A DNA stretch of 64,000 nucleotides from a virus (Duplodnaviria; Heunggongvirae; Uroviricota; Caudoviricetes): the IMG/VR virus record IMGVR_UViG_3300045988_009603. One strand, 5' to 3'. A model generated the notes under the pieces. It was not told the DNA's origin. It saw only the letters and a list, made by a program, of their open reading frames with translations, and made no database searches. Below, one piece after another: positions 3,704 through 31,686 of this stretch (position 1 is its first letter; each line of letters starts with the position of its first letter). Made by a program: the position numbers and the translations under genes.

Positions 3704-3719
3704 TAAGCACCTTTGAAAT

Positions 3720-3795: not shown

Positions 3796-3801
3796 ATAAA
3801 T

Positions 3802-3877: not shown

Positions 3878-3908
3878 ATTTAAGGACTCTCGTAAGAACC
3901 CTTAGAAG

Positions 3909-3984: not shown

Positions 3985-3989
3985 AAATT

Positions 3990-4068
3990 TGGTACTCCAT
4001 ATCGGATTCGAACCGATACATAACACAGATTTTAAGTCTGGCCTCTCTGCCAATTGGAGTAATGGAGC
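3990..4068 (-). tRNA. tRNA with anticodon UAA (Leu isoacceptor by anticodon), short variable arm
   Basis: anticodon loop CTTAAAA; D-loop CAATTGGCAGA; A73; T-arm ATCGG-TTCGAAT-CCGAT. Confidence 0.5.
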
Positions 4069-4070
4069 AT

Positions 4071-4146
4071 TGGCGGGGGATGTTGGAATTGAACCAACTT
4101 CTTCGATTTCAAAGACCGAGGTTTTAACCTTGTAAACTAATCCCCT
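4071..4146 (-). tRNA. tRNA-Gln (anticodon UUG)
   Basis: anticodon stem TCGGT/ATCGA, loop CTTTGAA; T-arm GTTGG-TTCAATT-CCAAC. Confidence 0.6.
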
Positions 4147-4154
4147 TTAAATCT

Positions 4155-4712: not shown

Positions 4713-4731
4713 TTAAATAGCCTCTTTAAAT

Positions 4732-4807
4732 TGGCGCAGGATAAGGGATTCGAACCCCTATTAACAGCTTCGTAGACTGTTGCTCTATCCATTTGAACTA
4801 ATCCTGC
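4732..4807 (-). tRNA. tRNA-Arg (anticodon ACG)
   Basis: acceptor GCAGGAT/ATCCTGC; anticodon loop CTACGAA; T-loop TTCGAAT. Confidence 0.75.
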
Positions 4808-4812
4808 AAAAT

Positions 4813-4890
4813 TGGTGTTCCAAGACGGATTCGAACCGTCACTAGTACAAGGTTTGAGCTTGCATCCTCTGCCAATTGGGATACTGGAAC
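4813..4890 (-). tRNA. tRNA with anticodon CAA (Leu isoacceptor by anticodon), short variable arm
   Basis: anticodon stem GCAAG/CTTGT, loop CTCAAAC; D-loop CAATTGGCAGA; A73. Confidence 0.5.
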
Positions 4891-4891
4891 A

Positions 4892-4966
4892 TGGTACTCA
4901 CTAAAGGACTTGAACCTTTTTCTTCATCTTGTAAGGGTGATGTTTTACCATATAAACTAAGCGAGT
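4892..4966 (-). tRNA. tRNA-Val (anticodon UAC)
   Basis: anticodon loop CTTACAA; T-arm AAAGG-TTCAAGT-CCTTT; one C-A mismatch in anticodon stem. Confidence 0.6.
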
Positions 4967-5061
4967 ATGAAAGAGGTCTGAAGTTGTGCCGCTAACTCAA
5001 CTCCGTGGAATTTGTTACGGTCTTCAGTTGACACCAGCGGTCTTTCACTTGACCTCTGAAT
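4967..5061 (-). ncRNA. structured non-tRNA spacer (pseudoknot-like crossed helices)
   Basis: no T-loop motif; crossed complementarities CTGAAG/CTTCAG and GCCGCT/AGCGGT plus outer GAGGTC/GACCTC. Confidence 0.3.
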
Positions 5062-5138
5062 TGGTGCTGCTCACAGGACTCGAACCTGCATTTCCATCCT
5101 TACAAGGGATGTGTAATAGCCAATTATACGAAAGCAGC
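5062..5138 (-). tRNA. tRNA-Thr (anticodon UGU)
   Basis: anticodon stem CATCC/GGATG, loop CTTGTAA; T-arm GCAGG-TTCGAGT-CCTGT. Confidence 0.8.
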
Positions 5139-5139
5139 A

Positions 5140-5553
5140 TTAAACTTTTATGATACCAGCATGTACTTTTCTGTGACAGTTAGCGCACAAGACAATGCAC
5201 TTTCTGATTTCATCTTTTAATCTTTTTGTGGAGTATGAATAAAGTGATGCAGGATTCAAATCTTTCTGGGAAGGGTCTGTATGGTGTAAATCCAATGCAA
5301 CTGGTTCTTTCTCACCACATATATGACATTTGCATAAAGCTTTGTACCTTCTAGCTAGAGTCTTGTTATACTCTCTCTTGAAGTTACGAGTACTTTTAAT
5401 AGCCTCTTTCCTTTTATCATTTGCTTGATAACTCTTTGCATCACGAAGTCTTGCACAGTCTTTGCATTGACTTTGAAGACCATCTTTCTTGTTCTTATTC
5501 TTATGGAATAAGCTTTCATCTTTTGGTATTCTGCAAGTACTGCATATTTTCAT
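5140..5553 (-). CDS. HNH endonuclease embedded in tRNA cluster
   Basis: 137 aa; Cys-rich, LDLHHTDP...CANCHRKVH HNH motif. Confidence 0.75.
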   Translation of the reverse strand: MKICSTCRIPKDESLFHKNKNKKDGLQSQCKDCARLRDAKSYQANDKRKEAIKSTRNFKREYNKTLARRYKALCKCHICGEKEPVALDLHHTDPSQKDLNPASLYSYSTKRLKDEIRKCIVLCANCHRKVHAGIIKV

Positions 5554-5567
5554 ATCACACCTTAATT

Positions 5568-5642
5568 TGGAGCATCCAGAGGGAATCGAACCCTCAACCT
5601 CAGTTTGGAAGACTGTAATTTTCCCGTTTAAACTATGGATGC
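5568..5642 (-). tRNA. tRNA-Gly (anticodon UCC)
   Basis: acceptor GCATCCA/TGGATGC; anticodon loop CTTCCAA; T-loop TTCGATT. Confidence 0.7.
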
Positions 5643-5648
5643 ACTAAT

Positions 5649-5724
5649 TGGTGGAGTCACTGAGAATTGAACTCAGTTACCGAGTTTGCAAAACTCGAAT
5701 TTTAACCATATAAACTATGACCCC
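5649..5724 (-). tRNA. tRNA-Ala (anticodon UGC)
   Basis: anticodon stem CGAGT/ACTCG, loop TTTGCAA; G3-U70 pair in acceptor stem. Confidence 0.8.
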
Positions 5725-5730
5725 AATGTT

Positions 5731-5806
5731 TGGTACAGGTGGAGGGAATTGAACCCATCGTCTTACTGATTAAGAGTCAGCCGCATAACCATTTTGCTAC
5801 ACCTGC
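5731..5806 (-). tRNA. tRNA-Lys (anticodon CUU)
   Basis: anticodon loop CTCTTAA; paralogous to the UUU copy at 6957-7032; T-stem only GGG/CCC. Confidence 0.6.
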
Positions 5807-5813
5807 ATTAATT

Positions 5814-5891
5814 TGGTAGGAGACAAGGGATTCGAACCCTCAAACACCAACTTCTAAGGATGGTAGGTTTACCAATTACCGTCAATCTCCC
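5814..5891 (-). tRNA. tRNA with anticodon UAG (Leu isoacceptor by anticodon), short variable arm
   Basis: anticodon loop CTTAGAA (stem has U-U mismatch); T-arm GAGGG-TTCGAAT-CCCTT; D-loop TAATTGGTAAA. Confidence 0.45.
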
Positions 5892-5966
5892 ATTAAATCT
5901 TTTTAGAGAACTTCTAAGAACCTAAGCAACAAGGTTCCACAACAAGCTGTAATAACCTTAGAAGCC

Positions 5967-5990
5967 CTCTAAAAAGACCTAAATAGGTCT
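5967..5990 (-). terminator. internal terminator-like hairpin in tRNA operon spacer
   Basis: minus-strand AGACCUAUUUAGGUCU followed by U5. Confidence 0.45.
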
Positions 5991-6146
5991 TTGCATAGTC
6001 TTGTTTAATCCGGTGACTAGAACCTTTGGAGAGCTTGATATTATCTCTTCTCCGTGACACCTACTAGGTGCTTTATCAGTGTGTACGACAATACACGAGG
6101 GATACCAAAGCAACATCCGAATGAAGCTTGGCTTTAAATCTTATTA

Positions 6147-6236
6147 GGCGGTAAGTAAAGGAGTCGAACCCTCACCGTATCTCTACAGTGGCAACAGTTT
6201 TCAAGACTGTTTGGCTGCCATTAGCCGCTACCTACC
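6147..6236 (-). tRNA. tRNA-Ser (anticodon UGA), long variable arm
   Basis: anticodon stem ACAGT/ACTGT, loop CTTGAAA; about 90 nt; G73; 3' CC encoded, terminal A not. Confidence 0.7.
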
Positions 6237-6249
6237 CCTAATAAGACTT

Positions 6250-6332
6250 TGGCATGGGACGGAGGAGTTGAACCCCTTTGAAACGGTTTTGGAGGCCGTT
6301 GCTCATGCCTTAGAGTCTTAACATCGTCCCAC
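6250..6332 (-). tRNA. tRNA-Trp-like (anticodon CCA) with extra nucleotides between acceptor stem and D-stem
   Basis: anticodon arm ACGGC-CUCCAAA-ACCGU resembles E. coli tRNA-Trp; acceptor GTGGGAC/GTCCCAT; about 7 nt longer than canonical. Confidence 0.45.
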
Positions 6333-6474
6333 ACTATAATTCGAAGCTTACCGTATTTTCGCAACACTGTAAAGCCCCTTCTCAGATTATTTACATGTTC
6401 TGGAAAACATGAGATACAGACCACCTCCTTACACGGAGACCCGATAAGGTCGTCTAAGCAATCTGCTAACTATT

Positions 6475-6551
6475 TGGCACACCCTACAGGATTCGAACCT
6501 GTAACTAACGATTTAGAAGACCGTTGCTCTATCCAATTGAACTAAGGGTGC
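6475..6551 (-). tRNA. tRNA-Arg (anticodon UCU)
   Basis: canonical D-arm GTTC-AATTGGATA-GAGC; anticodon loop CTTCTAA. Confidence 0.8.
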
Positions 6552-6798
6552 ATTAATCTTTAAAGACTCTCTTAGAAAGCCCTTAAAGATGCCCACCTTA
6601 TTAATCATACCGTGGGCGAGTACGCCAAATTCTTTGATGAGGGATTGGAAGACCTCACTGGTGTTTAGCCTATCAAGCTACTGCCAGAAAAACATTGTCG
6701 TTTGCATTTATTTTAAATTTGCAAAATAGACGCTACGCAACGAAAACTAAGGTTACTATAAAGTGGTCACATGTTAATGTCAACAACTTTATTGAAAT

Positions 6799-6874
6799 TG
6801 GTACTGGTAGGTGGAATCGAACCACCGATGTTCCCTTATCAGGGGAGTGTTATAACCTTCTTAACTATACCAGC
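6799..6874 (-). tRNA. tRNA-Ile (anticodon GAU)
   Basis: anticodon loop CTGATAA; T-arm GGTGG-TTCGATT-CCACC. Confidence 0.8.
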
Positions 6875-6875
6875 T

Positions 6876-6952
6876 TGGAGGTTCAGATGGGAATCGAACC
6901 CACATTCATAGGGCTTATGAGACCCCTGCATTACCTTATCTGCGACTGAACC
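6876..6952 (-). tRNA. tRNA-Met (anticodon CAU; elongator Met or Ile2 not distinguishable)
   Basis: acceptor GGTTCAG/CTGAACC; anticodon loop CTCATAA. Confidence 0.7.
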
Positions 6953-6956
6953 ATAT

Positions 6957-7032
6957 TGGTAGAAGTGGAGGGATTCGAACCCATCGCCTGTCAGATTAAA
7001 AGTCTGCCGCATCACCATTCTGCTACACTTCC
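6957..7032 (-). tRNA. tRNA-Lys (anticodon UUU)
   Basis: anticodon loop CTTTTAA; same unusual T-stem as the CUU copy. Confidence 0.65.
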
Positions 7033-7179
7033 ATTAAATTATCTTTGTAGATAAGCTACCCAGACTTGCTTAAGGTCTGTAGCGATGTGCTTTGTTGGGT
7101 TTAAATCTAGAATTTACCCTTTCACCCTTTGTGGTCGCATACTCACAGGTAAGCTTAATAACTTATCTACAAAGATAAT

Positions 7180-7316
7180 TACCAGACCGTTGTTTATCAT
7201 CTTAAGTGCTACCATTACACCAACTCGACATCTGCCGAGTGAAGGAATCGAACCTTCGCCTTTTCTTTACCGGAGAAATAGATTGTTTAAGTTTTGCTGT
7301 AAACGGTCTTCTGTAA
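7180..7316 (-). ncRNA. tRNA-like element with permuted arm order, enclosed by a terminal inverted repeat
   Basis: minus strand reads terminal stem AGACCGUU, T-arm GAAGG-UUCGAUU-CCUUC, ACUCGGC, AGAU, GUCGAGU, D-arm-like GUGUAAUGGUAGCAC, closing AACGGUCU; no canonical 5'-to-3' cloverleaf. Confidence 0.3.
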
Positions 7317-7490
7317 ATTTGTTGAGCCAGACCAAGTTTTAAATTTTTTCAAAATTAAATTGGCTTGAAAATATCATACGTACTTGCTGAATTTGGTCTT
7401 CTGCTCCTTTAAAGAATACTCGTAAGAACTCTTTAAGGGAGGGGCTAAATAGCCCTCTCAAAACATCATCTTGAAATACTTATTATAATT

Positions 7491-7568
7491 TGGCGGTTAC
7501 GAAGGGATTTGAACCCTCATCATCTCCCGTGACAGGGGAGTATTTTAACCAGATTAAACTACATAACC
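7491..7568 (-). tRNA. tRNA-Asp (anticodon GUC)
   Basis: anticodon stem CTCCC/GGGAG, loop CTGTCAC; G73. Confidence 0.85.
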
Positions 7569-7574
7569 TTTATT

Positions 7575-7662
7575 TGGTGTGCCGTGTAGGAGTCGAACCT
7601 ACCGAGTCTCAATGACAAGGGATTTACAGTCCCCACCGCTACCATCTACGGGATAACGACAC
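7575..7662 (-). tRNA. tRNA-Tyr (anticodon GUA), long variable arm
   Basis: anticodon loop CTGTAAA; T-arm GTAGG-TTCGACT-CCTAC; about 88 nt. Confidence 0.8.
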
Positions 7663-7671
7663 ATTTAAATT

Positions 7672-7748
7672 TGGCGGTTAGTCAGGGATTCGAACCCTGT
7701 GCCATTCGCTTAACAGGCGACCGCACATACCTTATGTGCTTCCTAACC
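7672..7748 (-). tRNA. tRNA-Asn (anticodon GUU)
   Basis: D-stem GCAC/GTGC; anticodon loop CTGTTAA. Confidence 0.8.
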
Positions 7749-7825
7749 TTAATACATTGCCAGACCGTGTTTTTTCTTTTATCCGCAAAAAGTAGTTTGT
7801 TGCTGCATACGGTCTTCTGCAAAAT

Positions 7826-7902
7826 TGGAGGCGGGTGCAGGAGTCGAACCTGCCGATACCATGCTAATGAGACATGTGAGACGCCCTTTCTCTATACCCG
7901 CA
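7826..7902 (-). tRNA. tRNA with anticodon CAU (second Met-type; initiator or Ile2 possible)
   Basis: anticodon loop CTCATTA; T-arm GCAGG-TTCGACT-CCTGC; 1:72 mismatch. Confidence 0.55.
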
Positions 7903-7993
7903 ATTCTTAATGACCAGACCAAATATCTTCTTTGTCCGATTTATCTTCAGATGAATAAGATTAAGTTTGCTGCAATTGGTCTTCTGTCAAAAC

Positions 7994-8071
7994 TGGCGTT
8001 CCAGAAGGGATTTGAACCCTCAAATATCCACTTTGAAAGAGTGGTGACTTTACCGTTTTGTCTACTGGAAC
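7994..8071 (-). tRNA. tRNA-Glu (anticodon UUC)
   Basis: anticodon stem CCACT/AGTGG, loop CTTTCAA; acceptor GTTCCAG/CTGGAAC. Confidence 0.85.
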
Positions 8072-8078
8072 ATTAATT

Positions 8079-8155
8079 TGGTCTCTGTTGGAGGACTTGA
8101 ACCTCCGGCCTTACCGCCCCAAACGGAACGCTCTACCAAGCTGAGCTAAACAGAG
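8079..8155 (-). tRNA. tRNA-Pro (anticodon UGG)
   Basis: canonical D-arm GCTC-AGCTTGGTA-GAGC; anticodon loop TTTGGGG. Confidence 0.75.
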
Positions 8156-17924: not shown

Positions 17925-17934
17925 AATATCTTAA

Positions 17935-17961
17935 GAGCCTCCTTAATTGGGGGCTTTTTAA
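17935..17961 (+). terminator. terminator-like hairpin at end of plus-strand block
   Basis: AGCCTCC/GGGGGCT stem followed by TTTTT. Confidence 0.5.
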
Positions 17962-17964
17962 TTT

Positions 17965-19525
17965 TTATAAAATTTCATCGGTTGTCCCAACCTCTGGGTC
18001 ACCATCATATGTGAATAAAATATCTACCCTTCTTAACAACCTTCTTAAGCTTACTCTCTATATAGTTATATAGTACTATATAGTATCTTAGTGTCTATCT
18101 AGTGGTCTTAATAGCCCATCTGTATAACCCTTCTAAACACTCTTCTAACAAGCCTTCTTAACAACCTATACAATCACCTTAACCATCCCTCTACACCCTC
18201 TTAGAAGCTCCTATACACCTCTTAATCTCTATGTCAGCTATGTTACCCTCTATAGATGTTCACTAGGTATTACTAAGCCTCTATATAGTCTGTTTTAACA
18301 AACTTAACAGGAATATCTTTACAGACCTTATCTCACAAGGTCTAACACGGTACTAACAAGGTATCTTATAAGCCTGTTTATGCCTGTATTTTTAAAAGAC
18401 TGTCTAGGTAATTATTCAGAATTTTAAAATTTTTATAAAATAGGGCTATCAAGTCATTTTTTAGGGTCTTTGAAGGAACTCAAAAATATCTGTAGAAGAT
18501 GTATATCTGCTTGGTAGCCCTTAACATCCCTGTAACATCCCCTTTGCAGAATTTTAAAATATCATTAACAATCTCTTAACAGTTGCTACATCTTCTTAAC
18601 GACTCTTCAAAGGTCTTAACAGTTTCTTAACAGAACTAACAAGGCTGTAACAGTTTCTTAACAGTTGATACATAGTCTTTACAGATGCTTAACAGATGAC
18701 TAACAAGAGCTAACAAGTTAATTTTTAAGAGTTATTTTGTAGGGATTGGTAACAATACCAATTAAGATAATTAACAAGTTCCTAACAAGTGTTTAATCTT
18801 TTTAACAAGCTATTAACATGGTCACTATCTCTTTTCTTATCGTTCCCTTTCCCTCTTAGTGATTCTTTAAATAGCCCTCTTAAAAGCTCTCTATAGCTTT
18901 TTGTAAGCTCTTTTAAGCCTCTTCCTAGTAATTACACCCCAACTATGTAGAAAGCTCTTTATAGGGCTTTACAGAAGCTTTAAAGGCTATGTCAAAGACT
19001 CTTACAAGGCTTTTACATGGTTTTAACAGAGATTTAACAAGGGGCTAACAAGTTGCTAACAAGTGTCTTAAAAGCATAACTATGTAGGATTTGTTAAGAA
19101 ATTGTTAAGAAAATGTTAAGGGGGCTAGCATTTACGTAACTTTATAGCCTCTTTTACGTAACTTTGAAGTAACTTCATAGCCCCTATAACATACTTTTAA
19201 AACACTAACAAGCCCTTTCTAGTAGTTCACAAGAGACTAACGAGATGGTAAAGCTTACACCCTTATAAGATTCTTTTAAGGCTCTGGGAAGCTTTATAAA
19301 GGGCTTTTAAGGGTGAGGTAATGCAATCCCTTAAGTTGGGTTGATAAGGCTGTTATAGAGCGTTACAGAGCGTTTAAGGGGTTGCCCTTCCCTTTCGGGT
19401 TATGGGCTTATATTTAAGTTGATTTGATAAAAGGCTATAGAGTAAGCTATAGAGTTATTGCTTTTAAGGTCTAGTAAGATTCTAGGAAGGAAAGGGAAAG
19501 GGTTTGTATAAGGATTGTATAAGAC
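17965..19525. repeat. ORF-free repeat-rich region: YTAACAR(G) iterons, 16 bp perfect palindrome, several direct repeats
   Basis: at least 25 copies of CTAACAAG/CTTAACAG-type heptamers on one strand, often 10-12 bp apart; TATATAGTACTATATA at about 18068; TTTACGTAACTTT x2 at about 19140. Confidence 0.7.
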
Positions 19526-19526
19526 G

Positions 19527-19552
19527 TAAAAAAGCCCCTATTCAGAGGGGCT
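19527..19552 (-). terminator. rho-independent terminator at end of minus-strand small-gene array
   Basis: minus-strand AGCCCCUCUGAAUAGGGGCU followed by U6. Confidence 0.6.
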
Positions 19553-19590
19553 GTAAAGGTATCTGGGGCTATTTAGCCCCGTTGCGTCGA

Positions 19591-19839
19591 TTAGTTGTAA
19601 CCTTGTTTGCTGTAGTACAGGGAGACAATCAAATCACCCCAATAATGGTAATGGTGTTCATCGTTTAATGCCTCTTTTACTGCATCTTTCCAGAAGTCAT
19701 CAGTAGGGTTATAATCTGGAATAACTTGCTTGATAACTGTCTTCACTAATGAAAAACACTCATCAGTCCCACCAATATCAAATTTAACGTCCAGAGTATA
19801 ACAGCCATAAGCATTGACAGTTGCGCGGATAGTTGCCAT
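19591..19839 (-). CDS. hypothetical small protein (array gene)
   Basis: 82 aa ORF preceded by conserved cassette and AGGAG SD. Confidence 0.5.
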   Translation of the reverse strand: MATIRATVNAYGCYTLDVKFDIGGTDECFSLVKTVIKQVIPDYNPTDDFWKDAVKEALNDEHHYHYWGDLIVSLYYSKQGYN

Positions 19840-19904
19840 TTTTGAATCTCCTAGTTTAAGGACTTTACTTAGTAGGGAGGTTATCCCTCCCGTTGATTAG
19901 TAAT
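19840..19904 (-). repeat. intergenic cassette type A (hairpin + SD)
   Basis: CAACGGGAGGG-loop-CCTCCC...TAAACTAGGAGATTCAAAAATG. Confidence 0.7.
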
Positions 19905-20168
19905 TTACTGCATGTTGGCGTATGTTGCAAGTCTTTTTTCGTTGTATTTTGTCAGAATCTCACAAGATAAAACATCAAACTTTGTAATAGCGTTGCCTTT
20001 GTCGAGGTCAAAGAATCCAAATGATTTACCATCTTTGAATCCGACCACTTCGTAAGATTCTTTAATGATTTCACCATTGAACAAATCACTTTCGATACGG
20101 TGGAATAATGCTACATCCTCTTTGTCGGTTGCAATTTGTAAAAGTGTGGTCAGTTCGACGTTTTCCAT
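19905..20168 (-). CDS. hypothetical small protein (array gene)
   Basis: 87 aa ORF, cassette upstream. Confidence 0.5.
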   Translation of the reverse strand: MENVELTTLLQIATDKEDVALFHRIESDLFNGEIIKESYEVVGFKDGKSFGFFDLDKGNAITKFDVLSCEILTKYNEKRLATYANMQ

Positions 20169-20234
20169 CTTGATAACTCCAGTTTAGGACTTTATTTAGT
20201 GGGGAAGGTCATTCCCTCCCCGTTGATTGACAAT
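20169..20234 (-). repeat. intergenic cassette type A
   Basis: GGGGAGGGAATGACCTTCCCC hairpin + SD. Confidence 0.7.
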
Positions 20235-20765
20235 TTACAGATTTTTGATTGTCTCGTCAATATCTTTTTCAATATCTTTTAAAGTTTTTTCTAAGTTCTT
20301 GATATTGAACGTTAAACCTTCACCGAGGGTCTGAGAGTAACCGTTAGGACGATGGTCGTAAAGCTCGATATCTTCCACATCGGATAGGCTTACTCTTTCA
20401 CCATTTGCAGCGTAGGCCATTGAAACAGTATTTACAGGGGCTTTATAGAACTTGTTTAAGGACTTGATAGAACGTTCGTAAGCCATTTTATAACCGTTTA
20501 AAAGGCTTTTAACGTGGTTGTGAACGTTTTTACACTCATCCAAGTAAATCCCTAAGAATAGCGGTAATAATTCTGCTACAGCTTGCATAAAGCGAGAGAC
20601 CACAACTGTTGCAACATTACGACGATGAACGTAATAAGCCCCGTTTTCTGATTTAGTGATGGTTGCAAAGTGTACCCCATTGCAGCGAAATTCATAGGTA
20701 TCTTTAACAGGCTTAGACATTACAGCATTTGAGCGAATGTAGTTGATAGCTTGAAATTTGTTCAT
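20235..20765 (-). CDS. hypothetical protein (array gene)
   Basis: 176 aa ORF, cassette upstream. Confidence 0.5.
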   Translation of the reverse strand: MNKFQAINYIRSNAVMSKPVKDTYEFRCNGVHFATITKSENGAYYVHRRNVATVVVSRFMQAVAELLPLFLGIYLDECKNVHNHVKSLLNGYKMAYERSIKSLNKFYKAPVNTVSMAYAANGERVSLSDVEDIELYDHRPNGYSQTLGEGLTFNIKNLEKTLKDIEKDIDETIKNL

Positions 20766-20830
20766 TTTTGAATCTCCTAGTTTAAGGACTTTACTTAGTG
20801 GGGAAGGTCATTCCCTCCCCGTTGATTAGT
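20766..20830 (-). repeat. intergenic cassette type A
   Basis: same conserved hairpin + SD. Confidence 0.7.
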
Positions 20831-20928
20831 AATTTACTTGTTTTGATATCTGATTGCAAGCAATTTTTTAAGTTTATCTTTAAAGAAATCTTTTAAGTGA
20901 ATCCCTTTAAGATAAACCCCCTCGAACA

Positions 20929-20958
20929 ACATTACCAATGTCAAGGGGTATTGTCAAC
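20929..20958 (-). promoter_or_regulatory. putative internal sigma70-like promoter
   Basis: minus strand TTGACA-N18-TAATGT with TTGACA direct repeat. Confidence 0.35.
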
Positions 20959-20989
20959 ACTTTTTTAAAAGTTTTTTGTAAGTTATTGA

Positions 20990-21331
20990 TTAACTGATGA
21001 ATATTTTTTCAGGTTTTACGTAGCTGATACGCTGATTTTTTAGCAAGTCATCCCAGATTAGCGCGGCGATATGGGAGTAACCGGATTCACGTAAAAGCTT
21101 CATTGTTTTACTTCTCGTTTCAAAACGGCTTGCGTAGTACTCACTATTCAGCGTCGTTTTATTCCCTTCATTGTCTACATGGATAATCTGCATCACTTGA
21201 AAGGGGCTGACATCCTCGCCTTTATTCCACTGCTCAAAGTATTTTAGGCACTGCATAGGTGACATCTTATCACTTACTTGAGTTGACCAAGATGAGCCAG
21301 CCTTGTCGGTAATTACGGTTACATAAGCCAT
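20990..21331 (-). CDS. hypothetical protein (array gene)
   Basis: 113 aa ORF. Confidence 0.5.
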   Translation of the reverse strand: MAYVTVITDKAGSSWSTQVSDKMSPMQCLKYFEQWNKGEDVSPFQVMQIIHVDNEGNKTTLNSEYYASRFETRSKTMKLLRESGYSHIAALIWDDLLKNQRISYVKPEKIFIS

Positions 21332-21410
21332 TTTTGAATCTCCAGTTTAGGACTTTACTTAGTGGGGAAGGTCATTCCCTCCCCGTTGATTGACAATTTA
21401 CAGACTTTTA
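21332..21410 (-). repeat. intergenic cassette type A
   Basis: conserved hairpin + SD. Confidence 0.7.
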
Positions 21411-21420
21411 TCAGGCTTGT

Positions 21421-21654
21421 CTAGTCTTTTTCAATGATAATTTCATATTGACCATCGACACTATCAAAATAAACGCCGTCATTATCTTCTGTTTTGAAGT
21501 AGCATTGTATATCATCACTGGCGGGGTAGTCTTGTCTTGCTATCTGGCAAACTTGAATAGCATTTTCTTTACTCCCTGTAAACTCCTCAAGCCCTTTAAA
21601 ATCGCATGAATGACCATTACAAATAGAAAGGATAAGATAAATGGTTGTAAGCAT
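21421..21654 (-). CDS. hypothetical small protein with hydrophobic N-terminus
   Basis: 77 aa; MLTTIYLILSICNGHSC. Confidence 0.45.
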   Translation of the reverse strand: MLTTIYLILSICNGHSCDFKGLEEFTGSKENAIQVCQIARQDYPASDDIQCYFKTEDNDGVYFDSVDGQYEIIIEKD

Positions 21655-21720
21655 GATTTAAGCCTCTTAAAAGCCCCTGTGAGGGGCTAATCAGTGTTTA
21701 TAAGGTGATTGTATAGGTTA

Positions 21721-22263
21721 TTAGAAAAAGCTCTTCAAATCCTCTTCTGCGATGTTTTCCGTTAGTGTGTCCATGATGTCACAAAAAACCTGAATACTGT
21801 CCGATTGTTGAACACTTTTAGCAAGTAGTTCTAATGTCTCATCAAGATAATTCATATTTGGGTTATCCAGTGAAGGAAGACAAAAAGGCGAATACATAGC
21901 GTTAAACTCGGTTACATAAACCTTTTTAATCCAATTTAAATCGAAGTATTCTGTAAAACTTGCTACGCCAGACATATTATCACAAGAATAATCATCATTT
22001 AGGTCATCCTCTGGGATATCAAGCTCTAAGATAACAATATTTTGGGTTTTCATCTGGAAAGCTGCGGTGATAGCGGCATTACCCAGAGATTGTTGGATAC
22101 CTTCAGAGATTATTTCTTCCTCATCGTCACCATAGATTTTATTTTCTGGGTAAACGTAAAAATTCCCATCCATATCCGAACAATTCCATGCACCTGATGG
22201 CTTATCGCCGTTATTAATCAGGTTGATGAAGTTTTCTTGAGTAGTACCGTGGAAACATTTCAT
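21721..22263 (-). CDS. hypothetical acidic protein (array gene)
   Basis: 180 aa ORF. Confidence 0.5.
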   Translation of the reverse strand: MKCFHGTTQENFINLINNGDKPSGAWNCSDMDGNFYVYPENKIYGDDEEEIISEGIQQSLGNAAITAAFQMKTQNIVILELDIPEDDLNDDYSCDNMSGVASFTEYFDLNWIKKVYVTEFNAMYSPFCLPSLDNPNMNYLDETLELLAKSVQQSDSIQVFCDIMDTLTENIAEEDLKSFF

Positions 22264-22350
22264 TTTTGAATCTCCTAGTTTAAGGATTGAGTGATAAAGC
22301 TCTTTATCTGGGGCTTACTTTATCGAACTATAAGCCCCTTGTAAAGTACT
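22264..22350 (-). repeat. intergenic cassette type B (two hairpins + SD)
   Basis: GGGGCTTA-loop-TAAGCCCC and GATAAAG-CTC-TTTATC, then TAGGAGATTCAAAAATG. Confidence 0.7.
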
Positions 22351-22554
22351 TTAACGATTATTTTTGACAACTTTTAAAACTGCGCGATAACCTAAGCAAT
22401 AAGAATCACCGAAGAGTGACCGGCCCATGAAAGAATCCTCTTTGATATCCTTTGAAGTAACAGTTTTTTCTACGCCGTGAAAAAGGACTATATCGCCAAC
22501 TTTAATATCTTTGATGTGAGTAGTTTCAATGTTTAAGCCGTTAATAATAGCCAT
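22351..22554 (-). CDS. hypothetical small protein
   Basis: 67 aa ORF. Confidence 0.45.
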   Translation of the reverse strand: MAIINGLNIETTHIKDIKVGDIVLFHGVEKTVTSKDIKEDSFMGRSLFGDSYCLGYRAVLKVVKNNR

Positions 22555-22653
22555 TTTAGAATCTCCTAGTTTAAGGACTTTACTTAGTGGGGAGGTTATC
22601 CCTCCCGTTGATGTGTAATTTAATCTATCTGAAAACCAGTGTCAACAAAATTT
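22555..22653 (-). repeat. intergenic cassette type A
   Basis: conserved hairpin + SD. Confidence 0.7.
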
Positions 22654-23058
22654 TTATAGTTCTGCGTAAATTGCGTCACAGATATCACGAAAATCATGAT
22701 TTGTTAAATTACGTTGCAACCATGTTGCGAAAAAGTCAGCGATTGCAAAATTTGCGTCATACTCGACAGATAGCCACACTTTAACAGCAAAACGAAACAT
22801 TTTTAAATCAAGCTCTTTATTCATTACCTTAGATTTGCCTAACATGTCAGACATCTCATGTTGTGCACCGTCTAGCGTGATACCTGCTGCAACGTCAGCC
22901 AGTGAGTTTTTTACGTTTTCAACGTCTAAGATAACACTTTGAATCTTCCCGATAATGTTGTGCAATGTCTCATCCGGTGCTGATGATGTAATAACATTAA
23001 TCCGGTTAACGGTCAAACGTGCTTTTAAGATTGATAACTCACGGTTATTAATAGCCAT
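22654..23058 (-). CDS. hypothetical protein
   Basis: 134 aa ORF. Confidence 0.5.
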   Translation of the reverse strand: MAINNRELSILKARLTVNRINVITSSAPDETLHNIIGKIQSVILDVENVKNSLADVAAGITLDGAQHEMSDMLGKSKVMNKELDLKMFRFAVKVWLSVEYDANFAIADFFATWLQRNLTNHDFRDICDAIYAEL

Positions 23059-23143
23059 TTTAGAATCTCCAATTTAGGATTGAGTGATAAAGCTCTTTAT
23101 CTGGGGCTTACTTTATCGAACTATAAGCCCCTTGTAAAGTACT
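23059..23143 (-). repeat. intergenic cassette type B
   Basis: conserved hairpins + SD. Confidence 0.7.
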
Positions 23144-23416
23144 TTATACTAAGTGTAATTTTTTACCTTTTACCATGATGTAACTTGTTGCGCTATTGCT
23201 GTATACATCTTGATAAATTCTACGCAAACGGCCTTCGTAGTATACTTTCCAACTAGTTGGAATCTTTTTCCCGTATCCGGTAGCAGTTTTTTGGAATCCT
23301 GCAAGTTGCCAATCCAAAATGTGCTGTTCAGCTTGTAAATCCTCGAAGTGCATTACACCGTTCACATAGTGGCGCAGGGTTACGTTTAAGGTGTGACCGT
23401 TGTTAGTAGTGTACAT
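23144..23416 (-). CDS. hypothetical protein
   Basis: 90 aa ORF. Confidence 0.5.
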   Translation of the reverse strand: MYTTNNGHTLNVTLRHYVNGVMHFEDLQAEQHILDWQLAGFQKTATGYGKKIPTSWKVYYEGRLRRIYQDVYSNSATSYIMVKGKKLHLV

Positions 23417-23506
23417 TTTTGAATCTCCTAGTTTAAGGACTTTACTTAGTGGGGAAGGTCATTCCCTCCCCGTTGATTAGTAATTTACTTGTTTTAAAAA
23501 CCAAAA
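23417..23506 (-). repeat. intergenic cassette type A
   Basis: conserved hairpin + SD. Confidence 0.7.
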
Positions 23507-23839
23507 TCAAGAGGAATTTTTTCGTTTGCTCAATTCTTGAACTATTACAGCATGATAATCTTTTAAATCACTGATATTTAAAGCATTTATCAGAGAGTTA
23601 TAATCATCGACAAGCTGAAAATCATCTTTGAAAATGTCGCTGATTTGATAAGTTTTTGATTGAAATCTGAAGCTCATTTCTAACCGTTTTATTTGTTCAT
23701 CGCTTAAACGCTCCAGAAAGCTCATCACAAGGTTATTATTGACCTGCTGCGTGATTGCCTTACTTGCCAAATTATATGCGCTATAAGCCTTGTAAAGTGC
23801 TATAATGGCAATGATTGCAGTGATACCCATCATTAACAT
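23507..23839 (-). CDS. hypothetical protein with N-terminal TM helix
   Basis: 110 aa; MLMMGITAIIAIIALY. Confidence 0.5.
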   Translation of the reverse strand: MLMMGITAIIAIIALYKAYSAYNLASKAITQQVNNNLVMSFLERLSDEQIKRLEMSFRFQSKTYQISDIFKDDFQLVDDYNSLINALNISDLKDYHAVIVQELSKRKNSS

Positions 23840-24129
23840 GGTGCTTCCTCTTTACGTGATACCTTGCCATTTACAGTTATCTCATAAGATTCTAATAAAT
23901 CACTTTTAGATTTTACTGGACTTTTAAAAGTATCGTCATAAATATTTACTTGCAATACAGGTTTTTTATACTCCCTGCAACTATTCCATAAGCAAATCAC
24001 TACGCGACGGCCTTTTATTTTGCCGTGCAACCATTCCATAACATCATGATTATTTCTTGATGTTTCAATAAAATCAATTTTATTAAGTAACTTGCTTAGA
24101 TTTTCACGAACTTTATTGGATAATTTCAT
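23833..24129 (-). CDS. hypothetical protein
   Basis: 98 aa ORF. Confidence 0.5.
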   Translation of the reverse strand: MKLSNKVRENLSKLLNKIDFIETSRNNHDVMEWLHGKIKGRRVVICLWNSCREYKKPVLQVNIYDDTFKSPVKSKSDLLESYEITVNGKVSRKEEAPC

Positions 24130-24220
24130 TTTTGAGTCTCCTAGTTTAAGGGTTAATTTGATAAAGCTCTTTATCTGGGGCTATCATATCAGCTTGTTAG
24201 CCCCGTGTAAAGAGGTCTAT
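24130..24220 (-). repeat. intergenic cassette type B (variant)
   Basis: GGGGCTA-loop-TAGCCCC variant hairpin + SD. Confidence 0.65.
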
Positions 24221-24733
24221 TTAGCTCTTAAAGATATTCATCACTGAATCTTTCAACGATTCCAAACGTTCTAATACTTCAGATTCTGCGTCTGCGTTGT
24301 TCACCTCTTCTTTTAGTCTATCCTCTAAATCATCGCCGTCACGATAGCACCAATCGAAAGCATAACCAAGATAAAAACTTTCTAAAACCGTGCTACCGTT
24401 TGCATCCACAACTTTCGCGGCAAGGTTATACTCTGAAGCCTCTAAATCTCTTTCTAGTTCTTTCTGTAAGCTCGTGTAAGCCTCTTTCGATGGATTCTCA
24501 CGGCCTTGTTTTGCATAGTCACTTGAAAGCTGCTTAAGGCTGTAATGCAAAGGGATTGCATATTTAAATTCATTACGCTGACAGTTAGGATTTTTAATCG
24601 TCACACCGCCTTGATGGTCATCTGTAAACTTCCAATTATCAAGATTATGGCTTGCTTCAAAGCAATTGACAGCTTCATAAATAATGGTGAATTTTTCTTT
24701 TACAACTTCAAAGGTAGCATCTACAGTTTTCAT
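24221..24733 (-). CDS. hypothetical protein
   Basis: 170 aa ORF. Confidence 0.5.
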   Translation of the reverse strand: MKTVDATFEVVKEKFTIIYEAVNCFEASHNLDNWKFTDDHQGGVTIKNPNCQRNEFKYAIPLHYSLKQLSSDYAKQGRENPSKEAYTSLQKELERDLEASEYNLAAKVVDANGSTVLESFYLGYAFDWCYRDGDDLEDRLKEEVNNADAESEVLERLESLKDSVMNIFKS

Positions 24734-24828
24734 TTTTGAATCTCCTAGTTTAAGGACTTGATTTAGTGGTAAAGCTCTTTATCTGGGGCTTAAGATATCA
24801 ACTTTTAAGCCCCTTGTAAAGTACTTTA
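24734..24828 (-). repeat. intergenic cassette type B
   Basis: conserved hairpins + SD. Confidence 0.7.
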
Positions 24829-25101
24829 TCAGATTAAATTGCCAGTTAATGATAAGTGCATTTTATAGCCTTTTTTGGTAAAAACGTTCACTTTACCGAG
24901 TGATTTTACACCTTTAAAAAGGTTGTTTGAACTGCGTTTTAAGGTTAGTTGCTTATCAGCTTTCACGCCCCACCTTACAGCAGTTTGTTTTCCGTTGTCA
25001 ACCACTTTTCCGCATAACTTTTTAGCCATAACGCGAGCGTCATCACGAGTCTTTGCAGTAATTACAACGTTTTTTATAATAGCCATTTTTAAGTTCTCCA
25101 A
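24829..25101 (-). CDS. hypothetical basic protein
   Basis: 90 aa ORF. Confidence 0.5.
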   Translation of the reverse strand: MENLKMAIIKNVVITAKTRDDARVMAKKLCGKVVDNGKQTAVRWGVKADKQLTLKRSSNNLFKGVKSLGKVNVFTKKGYKMHLSLTGNLI

Positions 25102-25175
25102 TTTAGGATTTAGTGGTAAAGCTCTTTATCTGGGGCTTACTTTATCGAACTATAAGCCCCTTGTAAAGTACTTTA
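25102..25175 (-). repeat. intergenic cassette type B
   Basis: conserved hairpins + SD. Confidence 0.7.
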
Positions 25176-25556
25176 TCAGTTAATTTTGAAAATTGTCACA
25201 TAGCCGTCACTGCCGATTATTTGAGACACTCCAGCTTTTTCCACTGAATAGCCCATATTTTCAAGATGGTAAACAGCATCATCGTAACCATATGCGCCGC
25301 CCTGATAACGTCTCTTATCGCATCTTACTAATACTTTTCCGCGTCCTGCCAGTGCATTCAGTACGGCTTTTTCACTTGATAGTGTACCGTCTATCATGGT
25401 TGCCGTGTAATGGTTGATTTTATTCCCGTTGATATCATACTTGAAATTGAACGCATGAACAACAATTATTTTACCGTTAAATTTTTCATCAAGTGCCTTC
25501 TCCAGTGCGTTGCGAAAGTTGTCTTTGTTGATGAATTTCGGTGCACGATAAGCCAT
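25176..25556 (-). CDS. hypothetical protein
   Basis: 126 aa ORF. Confidence 0.5.
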   Translation of the reverse strand: MAYRAPKFINKDNFRNALEKALDEKFNGKIIVVHAFNFKYDINGNKINHYTATMIDGTLSSEKAVLNALAGRGKVLVRCDKRRYQGGAYGYDDAVYHLENMGYSVEKAGVSQIIGSDGYVTIFKIN

Positions 25557-25644
25557 TTTTGAATCTCCTAGTTTAAGGTTAATGTGGTAAAGCTCTTTAT
25601 CTGGGGCTTAAGATATCAGCTTTTAAGCCCCTTGTAAAGTACTT
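25557..25644 (-). repeat. intergenic cassette type B
   Basis: conserved hairpins + SD. Confidence 0.7.
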
Positions 25645-25851
25645 TTATCTATCGTAATAGTAAACCGCTGTCTGTTTTATATGTCGCTTTGTATTCTTCG
25701 TAAGGTAGCGATTAGAATTGATTGCCGTTTCTACATAGTTGCAATAATCAGCTTCTGATATTCTACGCCATGCGCCGCACACTTGCATATAAAAACGTTT
25801 TACCTTTGTGTTAACGTTAGTTGTAACCATCAATTCACGACTGTACAGCAT
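25645..25851 (-). CDS. hypothetical small protein, first gene of array
   Basis: 68 aa ORF. Confidence 0.45.
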   Translation of the reverse strand: MLYSRELMVTTNVNTKVKRFYMQVCGAWRRISEADYCNYVETAINSNRYLTKNTKRHIKQTAVYYYDR

Positions 25852-25901
25852 TTTTAGATTCTCCAGTTTAGGAAGTGGGCTGGCTTGCCCGTCTGATGCA
25901 A

Positions 25902-25930
25902 ATATTAGATAACCATACTCAAAGAGTCAA
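25902..25930 (-). promoter_or_regulatory. strong sigma70-like promoter driving the small-gene array
   Basis: minus strand TTGACT-N17-TAATAT with A/T-rich upstream element. Confidence 0.6.
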
Positions 25931-25959
25931 TAGGAATTTTAAAAATATTTTTGCAAAAA

Positions 25960-26330
25960 CTGTAATGAAACGGGCGCACGAGACTACCACAAAACAGAAC
26001 TACAATCAAGAATTATTTTTCAATCCGCTACAAATTTTTCTGTTGACTTTTATTTCCAGATGTGGTAGCCTTGTGAGAAATGGCGACATTCCCACCTGCA
26101 CCCACCTACCTGCACAATTCTAAAATGATTTTTCTTGCCCGACCTGATTTTTATCTGCACGTTTTGAAAATGAAAAAGCTCTTTGGAGATTACCTGCACA
26201 GTTTGAAAATGAATTTTCTCTTTGGAGTTCAAAATTCTCTCTACAGATTTCTCTACAGAACTCTACCTGCACAATCCTGAAATAAAAAAGCCCTCCTTAC
26301 CTGAAAAATTTACCAGATAAGAAAGGCTTA
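25960..26330. repeat. tandem imperfect direct repeats in non-coding region
   Basis: repeated TACCTGCACA (at least 3), TTTTGAAAATGAA (2), CTCTTTGGAG (2), TCTCTACAGA (2). Confidence 0.55.
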
Positions 26331-29178: not shown

Positions 29179-29870
29179 TGTTTAACTAACATGGTTTTAA
29201 TGTGTGGAAGGATTCTGTTTACCTTCTGAACATTCTTCTCTGTATCTTCTATAAAGCATACTATATTAAAGTAAGGAAGAATGCAAGACTGAATCATCCT
29301 AACTTTTAAACTTTCTGCACTTATAGAGTTAGTTCCAAAACCACGCATGAAAAGCATGTAATCATGCTCTATGTTATGCCTTAAAAACATCTCAGTAGGT
29401 ATTCTCTGAGATTCACCTCTTGCTGTCAAGAGTCCAATGGCAGCATGATTAGCAATTGCATCAATAATACTAAAAACATACGTTGGTTTTGCTCTTACAG
29501 AGTCAAGAAGATTAGTGTACTGTGAGAATGACCCATCAGTCAATTCCGTTGAGCAATCTTCGTGATTAAAATTTGTAAGAACACCATCAATATCTGCTAA
29601 GATGAGGTTACCTTTTTCTACAAGGTCTTTATTGACTATGACTAAACTGTCACGTCTTACACCTACAGTTTGTCCAGTCTCTTTGTCCACAACGTTCACA
29701 ATTGGTTGTGATGTGTGGAACTCTTCAAGTGAACATACAACTTCTCTTGCAGTGTCTTCAAAATCCCTGCACTGTTCTGGAGTCCATATACAGGAATCAA
29801 GACCTAACTCATGAGGATGCAAGTCGTAAGCATGACACAGTACTTCATCAGACTTTCTTAATTTTTTCAT
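29175..29870 (-). CDS. HAD-superfamily hydrolase-like protein (possible nucleotidase)
   Basis: ILADIDGVLT (DxDGx motif I), GLLTARGES, IEDTEKN. Confidence 0.45.
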   Translation of the reverse strand: MKKLRKSDEVLCHAYDLHPHELGLDSCIWTPEQCRDFEDTAREVVCSLEEFHTSQPIVNVVDKETGQTVGVRRDSLVIVNKDLVEKGNLILADIDGVLTNFNHEDCSTELTDGSFSQYTNLLDSVRAKPTYVFSIIDAIANHAAIGLLTARGESQRIPTEMFLRHNIEHDYMLFMRGFGTNSISAESLKVRMIQSCILPYFNIVCFIEDTEKNVQKVNRILPHIKTMLVKH

Positions 29871-30396
29871 GATTTACCTTAGAAATGTTTGTTGCAAATT
29901 CACATTGAGCAATGACTTTCATATTGTTATAGACATCTTGAGAGTATTTCTTAGCTTTAGGGATTTTGTACGAATACCCAGCATTATATGATGCTAAAAC
30001 TTTTTGTAAAGTCTTCTTTGACTTTGGTTGACCGTGTACCTTAGTCCAAAATTCAAGCTCTTTGTGTGTTTCCTTTGCAGCATAGTCAAAATCTTTTAAG
30101 AGTTTCTTTTTAGCCACATTAGGACTAATTTTGTTACGCTTTACAACAGTCTTCAAGTGATTCTGGAAAATACCATAGTCATGGGTCTTTTTATTCTCTA
30201 CCTTCAGACCTAACTCTGACTCTTGTAAGGCTATAGCAGCTAGAGTAATACCCCAACCTTTACCCATATTATTCTCACCATACTGGTAAGCTTTTAACAT
30301 GTTTACTTTTTGGCTAATTGATAGCTCTGGGCAGTCAACTGCATAAGATAAGTGTGCTGTAAACATTAAGCACAAACCTAGAATCAACTTCTTCAT
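29848..30396 (-). CDS. secreted lytic transglycosylase-like protein
   Basis: signal peptide MKKLILGLCLMFTAHLSYA; ALQESELGL...HDYGIFQ resembles SLT catalytic region. Confidence 0.45.
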   Translation of the reverse strand: MKKLILGLCLMFTAHLSYAVDCPELSISQKVNMLKAYQYGENNMGKGWGITLAAIALQESELGLKVENKKTHDYGIFQNHLKTVVKRNKISPNVAKKKLLKDFDYAAKETHKELEFWTKVHGQPKSKKTLQKVLASYNAGYSYKIPKAKKYSQDVYNNMKVIAQCEFATNISKVNHEKIKKV

Positions 30397-31607: not shown

Positions 31608-31686
31608 CTTATTACTCTCTCTTGTTAGTTAATAAATCATTTTGTAAGGCTATTCTAAGGGGCTTCAAAGCCCCTTGTCAAACACT

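Follow-up and report, generated by a model that had tools for sequence, protein, structure and literature searches.

Putative PeSL-like promoter/stem-loop cassettes between the small accessory genes of a Felix O1-like phage

Promoter-early stem-loops (PeSLs) have been described in the T4-like phages RB49/phi1, T4/PST and KVP40/nt-1 (Arbiol 2010, PMC2839356; Comeau 2014, PMC4122927). In lacZ assays the T4-type elements had promoter activity and their stem-loop lowered downstream expression, and promoter activity, terminator activity and mini-circles have been demonstrated for them (PMC2839356; PMC4122927). Here we analyse an array of small genes separated by repeated intergenic cassettes, of two types that we call A and B, in a 64,000-nucleotide stretch of phage DNA (IMG/VR record IMGVR_UViG_3300045988_009603, hereafter the window). 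Parts of these cassettes have been noticed before: a 57-bp repeat (our type B) and a 39-bp repeat (the promoter part of our type A) were listed in phage Felix O1 and left uninterpreted (Whichard 2010), and a 26-bp repeat close to the Shine-Dalgarno (SD) sequence was reported in phage Mordin, where it was likened to the start-associated sequences of mycobacteriophages and its role left unknown (Guan 2015, PMC4611695). We found no link between PeSLs and the repeats of Felix O1-like phages in the literature, in which PeSLs are described only from T4-like phages.

The window comes from a Felix O1-like myovirus (Felixounavirus). Its array region is 88-92% identical to that of the Escherichia phages JN01, ECP2307, adrianh and Bas63, and is matched by 258 phage records. 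Repeat finding gave two families, D1 (86 nt, type A) and D2 (90 nt, type B), and fuzzy searches of the whole 64 kb found the cassette motifs confined to 19.8-25.65 kb. Twelve canonical cassettes, six of each type, separate the open reading frames (ORFs) of the array, and there is also a related lead element, so that the thirteen cassettes of the original prediction are reached only by counting the leader of the lead promoter. The stems described there were found as claimed, namely GGGGAGGG/CCTTCCCC in type A, with a GGGAGG/CCTCCC variant, and GGGGCTTA/TAAGCCCC in type B, with three loop variants within the window.

Our overall reading, which we consider probable, is that each small accessory gene carries a self-contained promoter/stem-loop/SD module, where we infer both the promoter activity and the role of the hairpin. 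Each cassette would be the expression module for one gene, or in two places for a gene pair. It would open with a host sigma-70 promoter, in which an A-tract precedes the -35 hexamer and a 17-bp spacer leads to a TAnnnT -10; an RNA stem-loop would follow, and last would come a standard leader that ends in a GGAG SD and an ATG. The resemblance to PeSLs that had been proposed for this region holds feature by feature when set against the published definition. Both elements run through an upstream stop codon, an AT-rich tract, a sigma-70 -35/N17/-10, a Gn-loop-Cn stem-loop, an SD and an ATG, and where the stem-loop stands with respect to the promoter varies. PeSLs and the present cassettes both cluster among small ORFans, and at the sequence level the latter are likewise intergenic in a plastic region, with a promoter element at 13 of the array's 14 junctions, and coincide with insertions, deletions and replacements between close relatives.

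The promoter part of this reading is suggested by a conserved signature. Read from the upstream stop codon, every cassette of the window presents a -35-like hexamer, exactly 17 bp, and then TAnnnT. These hexamers and their spacing are conserved, with varying flanking bases, in the 162 cassettes collected from the window and from 16 relatives belonging to Felixounavirus, Mooglevirus and Kolesnikvirus, 17 Ounavirinae genomes in all. Type A follows the layout TTGnnn-N17-TAAATT, G-run/C-run hairpin and GGAG leader; TTGnnn or TAGACA, 17 bp and TAnnnT are present in 76/76 instances (14 genomes), with TAAATT in 59 of the 76. Its -35 and spacer come in at least seven unrelated modules, mostly lying wholly or partly within the 3' ends of different upstream ORFs, and an A-tract is found just upstream of the -35 in every one of them.

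Type B follows the layout TTTACA-N17-TAnnnT, with the -10 in the hairpin "loop". This arrangement is kept in 83 of 86 instances, and two more have an 18-bp spacer. Positions 1, 2 and 6 of the -10 hexamer are fixed and positions 3-5 occur in at least 12 forms; the loops are accordingly not freely variable, as had been thought, the TAnnnT always being kept 17 bp from TTTACA. The 17-bp spacer is also retained in a variant whose stem has 7 bp and not 8. Because the hexamer bases lie in the hairpin loop, RNA structure does not explain this pattern, which is what would be expected of a -10 element. The 6 kb of the array contain six TTTACA-N17-TAnnnT sites, where the expectation is roughly 0.2 per strand. 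From these observations we infer a sigma-70-type promoter in each cassette, with predicted activity and start sites.

The array had originally been placed behind one strong promoter, TTGACT-N17-TAATAT (25902-25930), and our promoter scan did recover it. That it drives the array by itself does not agree with the individual -35/17-bp/-10 signature of each cassette. Moreover, in four relatives (L007-L010) the lead promoter is joined directly to a type A ATCAAC-GGGGAGGG-SD leader, and therefore it appears to be a member of the cassette family and not a separate driver. Its own leader, a relative of type A, ends in the same CCTAAACTGGAG...ATG and contains a GGGC/GCCC mini-hairpin. A single operon transcribed from the lead promoter only, with cassettes serving RNA processing, stability or translation and with incidental hexamers, seems to us quite improbable. 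The near-consensus lead promoter and the flanking terminators do frame the array, the sense-strand structure of type B needs read-through transcription, and AT-rich DNA yields many promoter-like sites by chance. However, incidental hexamers would not account for a TAnnnT in a loop, exactly 17 bp from TTTACA with positions 3-5 free, for the agreement of at least seven unrelated type A modules in placing TTGnnn at -35 with an A-tract, for a spacer length that survives a stem indel, or for a lead promoter that is interchangeable with those of the cassettes.

The second part of the proposed module is the RNA stem-loop. In type A, 47/47 distinct variants fold at the same position, with free energies of -7.2 to -16.0 kcal/mol (median -12.6), and about 30 arm/loop combinations occur, some of them with deletions matched between the two arms. 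The predicted transcription start is at CAAC just ahead of the G-run, and the hairpin would thus cap the 5' end of the gene's own mRNA, 3-4 nt from its terminus; on read-through RNA it would stand just past the stop codon of the upstream gene. For both types the sense strand gives a more stable fold than the antisense (p = 4e-6 for type A and 0.002 for type B) and G.U pairs are common; this better folding and the many G.U pairs indicate RNA rather than a DNA cruciform. The selection on stem structure claimed earlier is borne out for the type A stem and for the upper stem of type B by folding and covariation. Rfam returned nothing but tRNAs, for the region by E-value and for the whole window at the gathering threshold.

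For type B, two separate hairpins had been described. Folding, RNAalifold and covariation instead gave one long interrupted hairpin of about 60 nt on the read-through RNA (-25 to -27 kcal/mol, z -2.9 to -3.9). It is made of a lower stem of 11 pairs, a 3x3 internal loop, an upper stem of 8-9 pairs and a terminal loop that holds the -10. In the lower stem the -35 region (UAAAGUACUUUA) pairs with an invariant "+1 element" just past the predicted start (UAAAGAGCUUUA), and the upper stem is GGGGCUUA/UAAGCCCC. This is the minimum-energy fold in 61/63 distinct type B cores, and RNAalifold arrived at the same structure independently. The upper stem is 98% paired; it shows a compensatory G:C to U:A change in Erwinia phages (pair 22-47) and a compensated indel from 8 to 7 bp, and half of the distinct sequences have U:G in place of a C:G pair. 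In the lower stem about 95% of cells are paired, with a G.U at 7-62, and there are compensatory changes from G:C to U:A at 9-60 (8 distinct sequences) and from U:A to A:U at 5-64 (4 distinct sequences). The covariation score is 0.123, compared with 0.066 in shuffles, none of 500 of which reach it, and at most 0.043 in slid controls across two structure counts. In a wider sample T at position 9 was found only alongside A at position 60.

The local hairpin GAUAAAG-CUC-UUUAUC, the second of the two described earlier, was rejected. The actual sequence is GATAAAGAGCTTTAyC; the stem would have 6 bp, all of them AU, and in 29 of 44 distinct copies it would contain an A.C mismatch. No covariation for this hairpin was seen among the distinct copies. 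On the predicted fold this element is the 3' strand of the long helix, pairing with the -35 region.

Could the dyads act on DNA instead, as operators (ATAAAGnnCTTTAC at -44..-31 and +3..+16), cruciforms or recombinase sites? Both half-elements are indeed near-palindromes at classical operator positions, and the authors of the PeSL work speculated on a protein binding the GGGG...CCCC motif. However, position 9 of the upstream element covaries with position 60 of the downstream one, and the local partners C12 and G57 never change. Since 9 and 60 lie in different half-palindromes whose local partners are unchanged, long-range pairing is indicated rather than two operators or repeat conversion. 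On the opposite strand the frequent G.U pairs would turn into A.C mismatches, and the sense fold has a significant advantage in stability. A single genome can contain both variant and standard cassettes, and no DNA-binding or recombinase domain was found among the array proteins. An action on DNA thus appears very improbable. Two independent palindromic operators or a DNA cruciform were rejected as the origin of the dyads on the 9-60 covariation, the G.U pairs and the strand asymmetry, and direct-repeat conversion between the two dyads was rejected on the constancy of column 57 when column 9 changes.

In type B, the promoter is predicted to start transcription from the A within the internal loop AGA (AGAUAAAG). 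Because the promoter's own start lies there, the long hairpin would form only on RNA coming from upstream; the entire promoter would be buried in a hairpin of about 60 nt that new transcripts lack. This geometry raises the idea, which we hold to be unlikely, of a dual-entry device in which a host RNase cuts the hairpin where the embedded promoter starts transcription. The cut would be made by RNase III in the internal loop or by RNase E just 3' of the upper stem, so that read-through and newly initiated mRNAs would have the same 5' end and leader and the upstream mRNA would keep a protective 3' hairpin. If true, it would be a compact way for each shuffled gene to be expressed identically wherever it lands.

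What the hairpins do at the end of a message is suggested by a copy without a promoter. Between g15, the last gene of the array, and the terminator lies the stem GGGGCUA-AAU-AGCCCC-AGA (the remnant GGGGCTA-AAT-AGCCCC-AGATACCTTTAC, 19553-19580, minus strand), which is kept in 12/12 relatives checked, whichever g15 allele they have. Because this promoter-less copy is conserved after the last gene, the stem would seem to have a promoter-independent job at the 3' end of the message. We tentatively propose, at a little less than even chances, that the hairpins act as a nuclease barrier or processing site by which the upstream message has its 3' end marked and protected, and are not classical terminators. 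Processing of type B would be RNase III-like, and type A hairpins would in addition stabilise the 5' end.

In the classical PeSL reading of the same modules, the stem-loops would mainly be attenuators or terminators that insulate genes from upstream transcription. The RB49/phi1 PeSL stem-loop placed before lacZ cut expression about as much as rrnB T1 did, the stems here directly follow stop codons, and GenBank MZ726791 annotates a "terminator" under a type A cassette match. On the other side, the terminator scan flagged both terminators that bound the array (19528-19552 and 26288-26329) and none of the cassette hairpins, a U-tract after the hairpin being absent from all 12 cassettes. Classical termination is unlikely for this reason, and canonical terminators were rejected as an identity for these hairpins. 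An efficient terminator within the first ~25 nt of its own transcript, where the type A hairpin lies, would abort that transcript. Finally, at the array end the conserved stem is followed by a separate canonical terminator, which suggests that the stem alone does not terminate. We regard insulation as possible, although on balance unlikely, and return to the self-contained module with a protective or processing hairpin.

The proposed modules also fit the way in which the array varies. The repeats, 60-100 bp long, would offer homology for recombination, by which single genes could be gained, lost, duplicated and exchanged with their expression intact. Cassette-bounded gain and loss, as originally predicted, was indeed seen across relatives as presence/absence, duplication and allele swaps. 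Six genomes, namely the window and those of five Felixounavirus relatives, have g14 together with one type A cassette, and five lack this unit. Felix O1 lacks g02-g03 and g09-g11, LNA1 lacks g03-g04, and g01 is replaced in three phages. Extra genes in Mooglevirus are flanked by type B cassettes, and in Sf14 (L016 10512-11269) the g12 homologue is tandemly duplicated with a type B cassette between the copies. Two alleles occur of g10 and likewise of g15 (~95% and 54-63% identity), with independent assortment. Genomes without g14 have a hybrid cassette that joins the promoter at the end of g13 to the g15 leader, either at TAAATT or after the discriminator and hairpin, and these two different crossover points within the cassette point to at least two separate events.

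At orthologous positions the upstream promoter module is constant, and the hairpin/loop variant changes between genomes and reappears elsewhere. Exchange between cassette copies would produce exactly such a constant promoter module with swapped variants, and variant and standard cassettes do occur together in one genome. In Mordin (L011 6474-6621) one gene is preceded by two type B cassettes in direct tandem. Every cassette-bearing relative that is reliably classified belongs to the Ounavirinae, as does the window, and cassettes otherwise occurred only on contigs of Ounavirinae size; none were found outside this group in the phage collection or in IMG/VR, where two matches on smaller contigs lacked the hairpin and are chance matches.

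Several observations weigh against the module reading. The -10 hexamers of type B are weak and agree with TATAAT at 3-5 of their 6 positions. A generic sigma-70 scan shows only modest enrichment in the region (32 sites versus 20.7 +/- 4.7), and the sigma-70 pattern count is not enriched window-wide (65 versus 52 in shuffles). Because of these counts, the case for promoters rests on the conservation pattern. The searchable literature holds no mapped transcript 5' or 3' ends for any Ounavirinae phage. The independent covariation events are few, the cassette copies are non-independent and exchange sequence, and the two outermost predicted pairs of the long hairpin are unsupported. The hairpins are free of U-tracts, and their role in processing or protection is a proposal. 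Finally, expression in Felix O1 agrees only in part with an array of early genes: RT-PCR (reverse transcription PCR) detects all seven array ORFs tested, which speaks for the module reading, and transcripts of ORF16, 20, 21 and 22 peak at 5 min, but those of ORF17, 19 and 23 (three of the seven) peak at 25 min.

The third part of the proposed module is the leader, in which a GGAG SD lies 6-9 nt ahead of the ATG in 13/13 elements. One common initiation region had been said to end every cassette; the exact 17-mer TAGGAGATTCAAAAATG is present in only 6 copies, and 10 copies are found when up to 2 mismatches are allowed. In all cassettes the SD lies within a weak 3-4-bp stem, (U)CCU-UAAACU-AGG(A) or UCC-UAAACU-GGA (-2 to -3.6 kcal/mol; for example 20774-20790, minus strand). 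The two forms differ by one co-deleted base pair, and Erwinia phages have CCUU-AUA-AAGG or CCUC-AAA-GAGG. This block could itself be the main cause of the conservation, as a translation-level signal read by a dedicated factor, like the start-associated sequences (SAS) of cluster K mycobacteriophages. The constant position of the SD in such a stem and the base-pair co-deletion would agree with such a signal, and the Mordin authors drew the same comparison for their 26-bp repeat, CCAACAATCCTAAACTGGAGAATCTA. However, it leaves the promoter signature and the large upstream hairpins unexplained, the function of the start-associated sequences is itself unknown, and no candidate factor was found. We think it improbable as the main cause. 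A RegB-like nuclease cutting GGAG SDs, a lead taken from the Mordin annotation, was among the ideas that failed: the window homologue (29848-30396) gave only a sub-threshold SLT match and no RegB match.

The boundaries of the individual modules are as follows, all on the minus strand. The lead cassette, upstream of g01, occupies 25852-25930, with -35 TTGACT at 25925-25930, -10 TAATAT at 25902-25907, mini-hairpin GGGC-AAGCCA-GCCC at 25877-25890 and SD GGAG at 25861-25864. The type B cassette upstream of g02 (25557-25647) has its -35 TTTACA at 25633-25638, -10 TATCTT at 25610-25615, upper stem-loop at 25603-25631, long hairpin at 25588-25647 and SD at 25565-25568. Those of g03 (25087-25176; -35 25162-25167, -10 TAAAGT 25139-25144, long hairpin 25117-25176) and g04 (24734-24829; -35 24815-24820, -10 TATCTT 24792-24797, long hairpin 24770-24829) fold at -25.1 kcal/mol with z = -3.9 and at -27.1 kcal/mol with z = -2.9, respectively. 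The type B cassette of g05 (24130-24220; -35 24206-24211, -10 TATGAT 24183-24188, long hairpin 24162-24220) is the one with the 7-bp upper-stem variant, GGGGCTA/TAGCCCC, and keeps its 17-bp spacer despite the compensated stem indel. The last two of this type precede g08 (23059-23147; -35 23133-23138, -10 TAAAGT 23110-23115, long hairpin 23088-23147) and g10 (22264-22354; -35 22340-22345, -10 TAAAGT 22317-22322, long hairpin 22295-22354).

All six type A cassettes have TAAATT as their -10. The first, upstream of g07 (23417-23510), has a -35 TTGATT (23505-23510) that overlaps the g06 stop codon, its -10 at 23482-23487, hairpin at 23451-23471 and SD at 23425-23428. The cassette of g09 (22555-22645; -35 TTGACA 22640-22645, -10 22617-22622, hairpin GGGAGG-GATAA-CCTCCC 22589-22606) differs in its promoter part by one mismatch from the 39-bp repeat listed for Felix O1. 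The -35 TAGACA (21418-21423) of the g12 cassette (21332-21423; -10 21395-21400, hairpin 21364-21384) includes the g11 stop codon. In the g13 cassette (20766-20859; -35 TTGCAA 20854-20859, -10 20831-20836, hairpin 20800-20820) the leader folds with its hairpin 3 nt from the predicted 5' end. The -35 elements of g14 (cassette 20169-20260; -35 TTGACG 20255-20260, -10 20232-20237, hairpin 20201-20221) and g15 (cassette 19840-19930; -35 TTGCAA 19925-19930, -10 19902-19907, hairpin GGGAGG-GATAA-CCTCCC 19875-19891) lie inside g13 and g14, and in both cassettes the TAA of TAAATT doubles as the stop codon of that preceding gene.

Two junctions have no cassette. At g05/g06 the ORFs overlap, and the g10-g11 gap, the only one with neither cassette nor gene overlap, contains a terminator-like hairpin, AGCCCCT-CAC-AGGGGCT followed by TTTT (21669-21688, minus strand; only 4 T follow the stem). 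The motif CCTATACAATCACCTTATAAACAC precedes this hairpin (21689-21717, minus strand) and recurs as TCTTATACAATCCTTATACAAACC after the terminator that ends the array (19500-19525, minus strand). That intrinsic terminator, predicted earlier, was recovered by the scan at 19528-19552 (minus strand) and corresponds to Felix O1 terminator t23. At the other end a strong intrinsic terminator with a 17-bp stem and a T-run (26288-26329, minus strand; Felix O1 t13) isolates the array from the upstream macro-domain operon.

An additional promoter-like site, TTGACA-N17-TAATGT (20929-20957, minus strand), lies in the 224-bp gap upstream of the g13 cassette and is overlapped by a CCCC...GGGG inverted repeat (20916-20949; whole element 20916-20957, minus strand). 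All Felixounavirus loci have a gap of similar size there, in which some records annotate an ORF of 36-46 aa. Outside the array, between rIIA and rIIB, is a compact element, TTGACA-[GGGGCTT-TGA-AGCCCC]-TAGAAT (31652-31681, minus strand), with its stem-loop wholly inside the promoter spacer; the stem resembles the upper stem of type B.

As for the genes, the ORF list and intergenic parse gave 15 ORFs of 67-180 aa on the minus strand, from 25851 down to 19591, in agreement with the earlier count of about 15. From g01 to g15 they encode 68, 126, 85, 170, 98, 110, 90, 134, 67, 180, 77, 113, 176, 87 and 82 aa. The claim that they have no recognisable domain stood: there was no Pfam match for any of the 15 proteins, PHROG matches were throughout to families of "unknown function", and the homologues are annotated as hypothetical in all relatives. 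The product of g10 models as a putative ADP-ribosyltransferase-like fold, and the gene sits a few kilobases downstream of a macro-domain gene; its homologue in Bas63, gene 107, has been reported as conditionally important. In Bas63 on host S17, disruption of most homologues of array genes was neutral or beneficial, the exception being gene 103 (the g06 homologue), the only array gene with clearly negative fitness scores in these data. The putative fold of g10 and this dispensability of most homologues are two hints towards the proposed enrichment in anti-defence genes. Gene g06 (23507-23839) begins within the end of g05 (23833-23839, minus strand; ATGTTAATGA), which suggests that the two are translationally coupled, and the g06 N-terminus is hydrophobic.

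Beyond the array, between its end and a convergent plus-strand gene that ends at 17924, about 1.6 kb (17925-19530) contain no ORF of 50 aa or more. This segment is packed with 8-mers of the CTTAACAG/CTAACAAG type, often 11 bp apart, and has an iteron-like look; its equivalent is unannotated in Felix O1 and Bas63. The records of Erwinia phages stop shortly past the array, so that this segment may contain the physical ends of the genome or an origin. Elsewhere in the window 24 tRNA genes are clustered at 2798-8155 (minus strand), with a lone TTTACA-N17-TAnnnT site at about 6345 (minus strand) among them. GenBank PP892526 (L010, vB_EcoM_I14.1) is filed as a Tequintavirus (T5-like), yet it is Felix O1-like across the array region, and the matches named after Staphylococcus and Campylobacter are probably similar labelling problems.

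These results join three scattered notes, on the two Felix O1 "direct repeats" and the Mordin "SAS-like" repeat, into one testable model. They define exact module boundaries for 15 unknown genes and offer about 13 predicted early promoters and leaders for engineering Felix O1-like phages, which are used in diagnostics, biocontrol and therapy. The idea of a portable promoter/stem-loop/SD cassette is thereby extended from T4-like phages to an unrelated and much-used group, which suggests that large lytic phages have arrived convergently at cassettes of this kind as a means of turning over accessory genes.

Among RNA elements known from elsewhere, the long type B hairpin recalls the RNase III sites between the early genes of phage T7, where, according to work attributed to Dunn and Studier, the upstream mRNA reportedly retains a protective 3' hairpin after cleavage. 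In either case an intercistronic hairpin of about two helical turns, with an internal loop, stands on polycistronic early RNA. The T7 sites, however, have no promoter, and cleavage of the type B hairpin, which has no sequence or Rfam match, is our proposal. The ompA leader, said to have been described by Emory, Bouvet and Belasco in 1992 as a 5'-terminal stem-loop that stabilises mRNA, is comparable with type A, in which a hairpin predicted 3-4 nt from the 5' end would have the geometry that protects against 5'-end-dependent decay; in type A both the start site and the stabilisation are predictions. With the SAS and extended SAS of cluster K the cassettes share a conserved SD-containing block right upstream of the start codons of a subset of genes, some copies being preceded by inverted repeats, but host and motif are different and here the block is the 3' third of a larger, promoter-containing cassette.

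The closest comparison is with PeSLs. The type B -35, TTTACA, fits the T4/PST consensus TTTACW-N17-TAYWAT, and the published subclasses accommodate type B as "stem-loop overlapping the -10", type A as "downstream of the -10" and the rIIA-rIIB element as "between -35 and -10". The present cassettes differ in having unrelated sequences, in being of only two sharply defined types with one shared leader, and in the covarying type B helix, about 19-20 bp long, in which the -35 region is base-paired to the region of the start site, a feature not described for PeSLs. Promoter and terminator activity and mini-circles have been shown for PeSLs, whereas the present cassettes are described from their sequence. 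Because they occur in Ounavirinae and not in T4-like phages, we take them as an analogue of PeSLs in another lineage and not as members by descent. The best reading of the locus is thus a PeSL-like cassette system in a second phage lineage, to which is added a predicted promoter that lies within a covarying RNA hairpin about 60 nt long.

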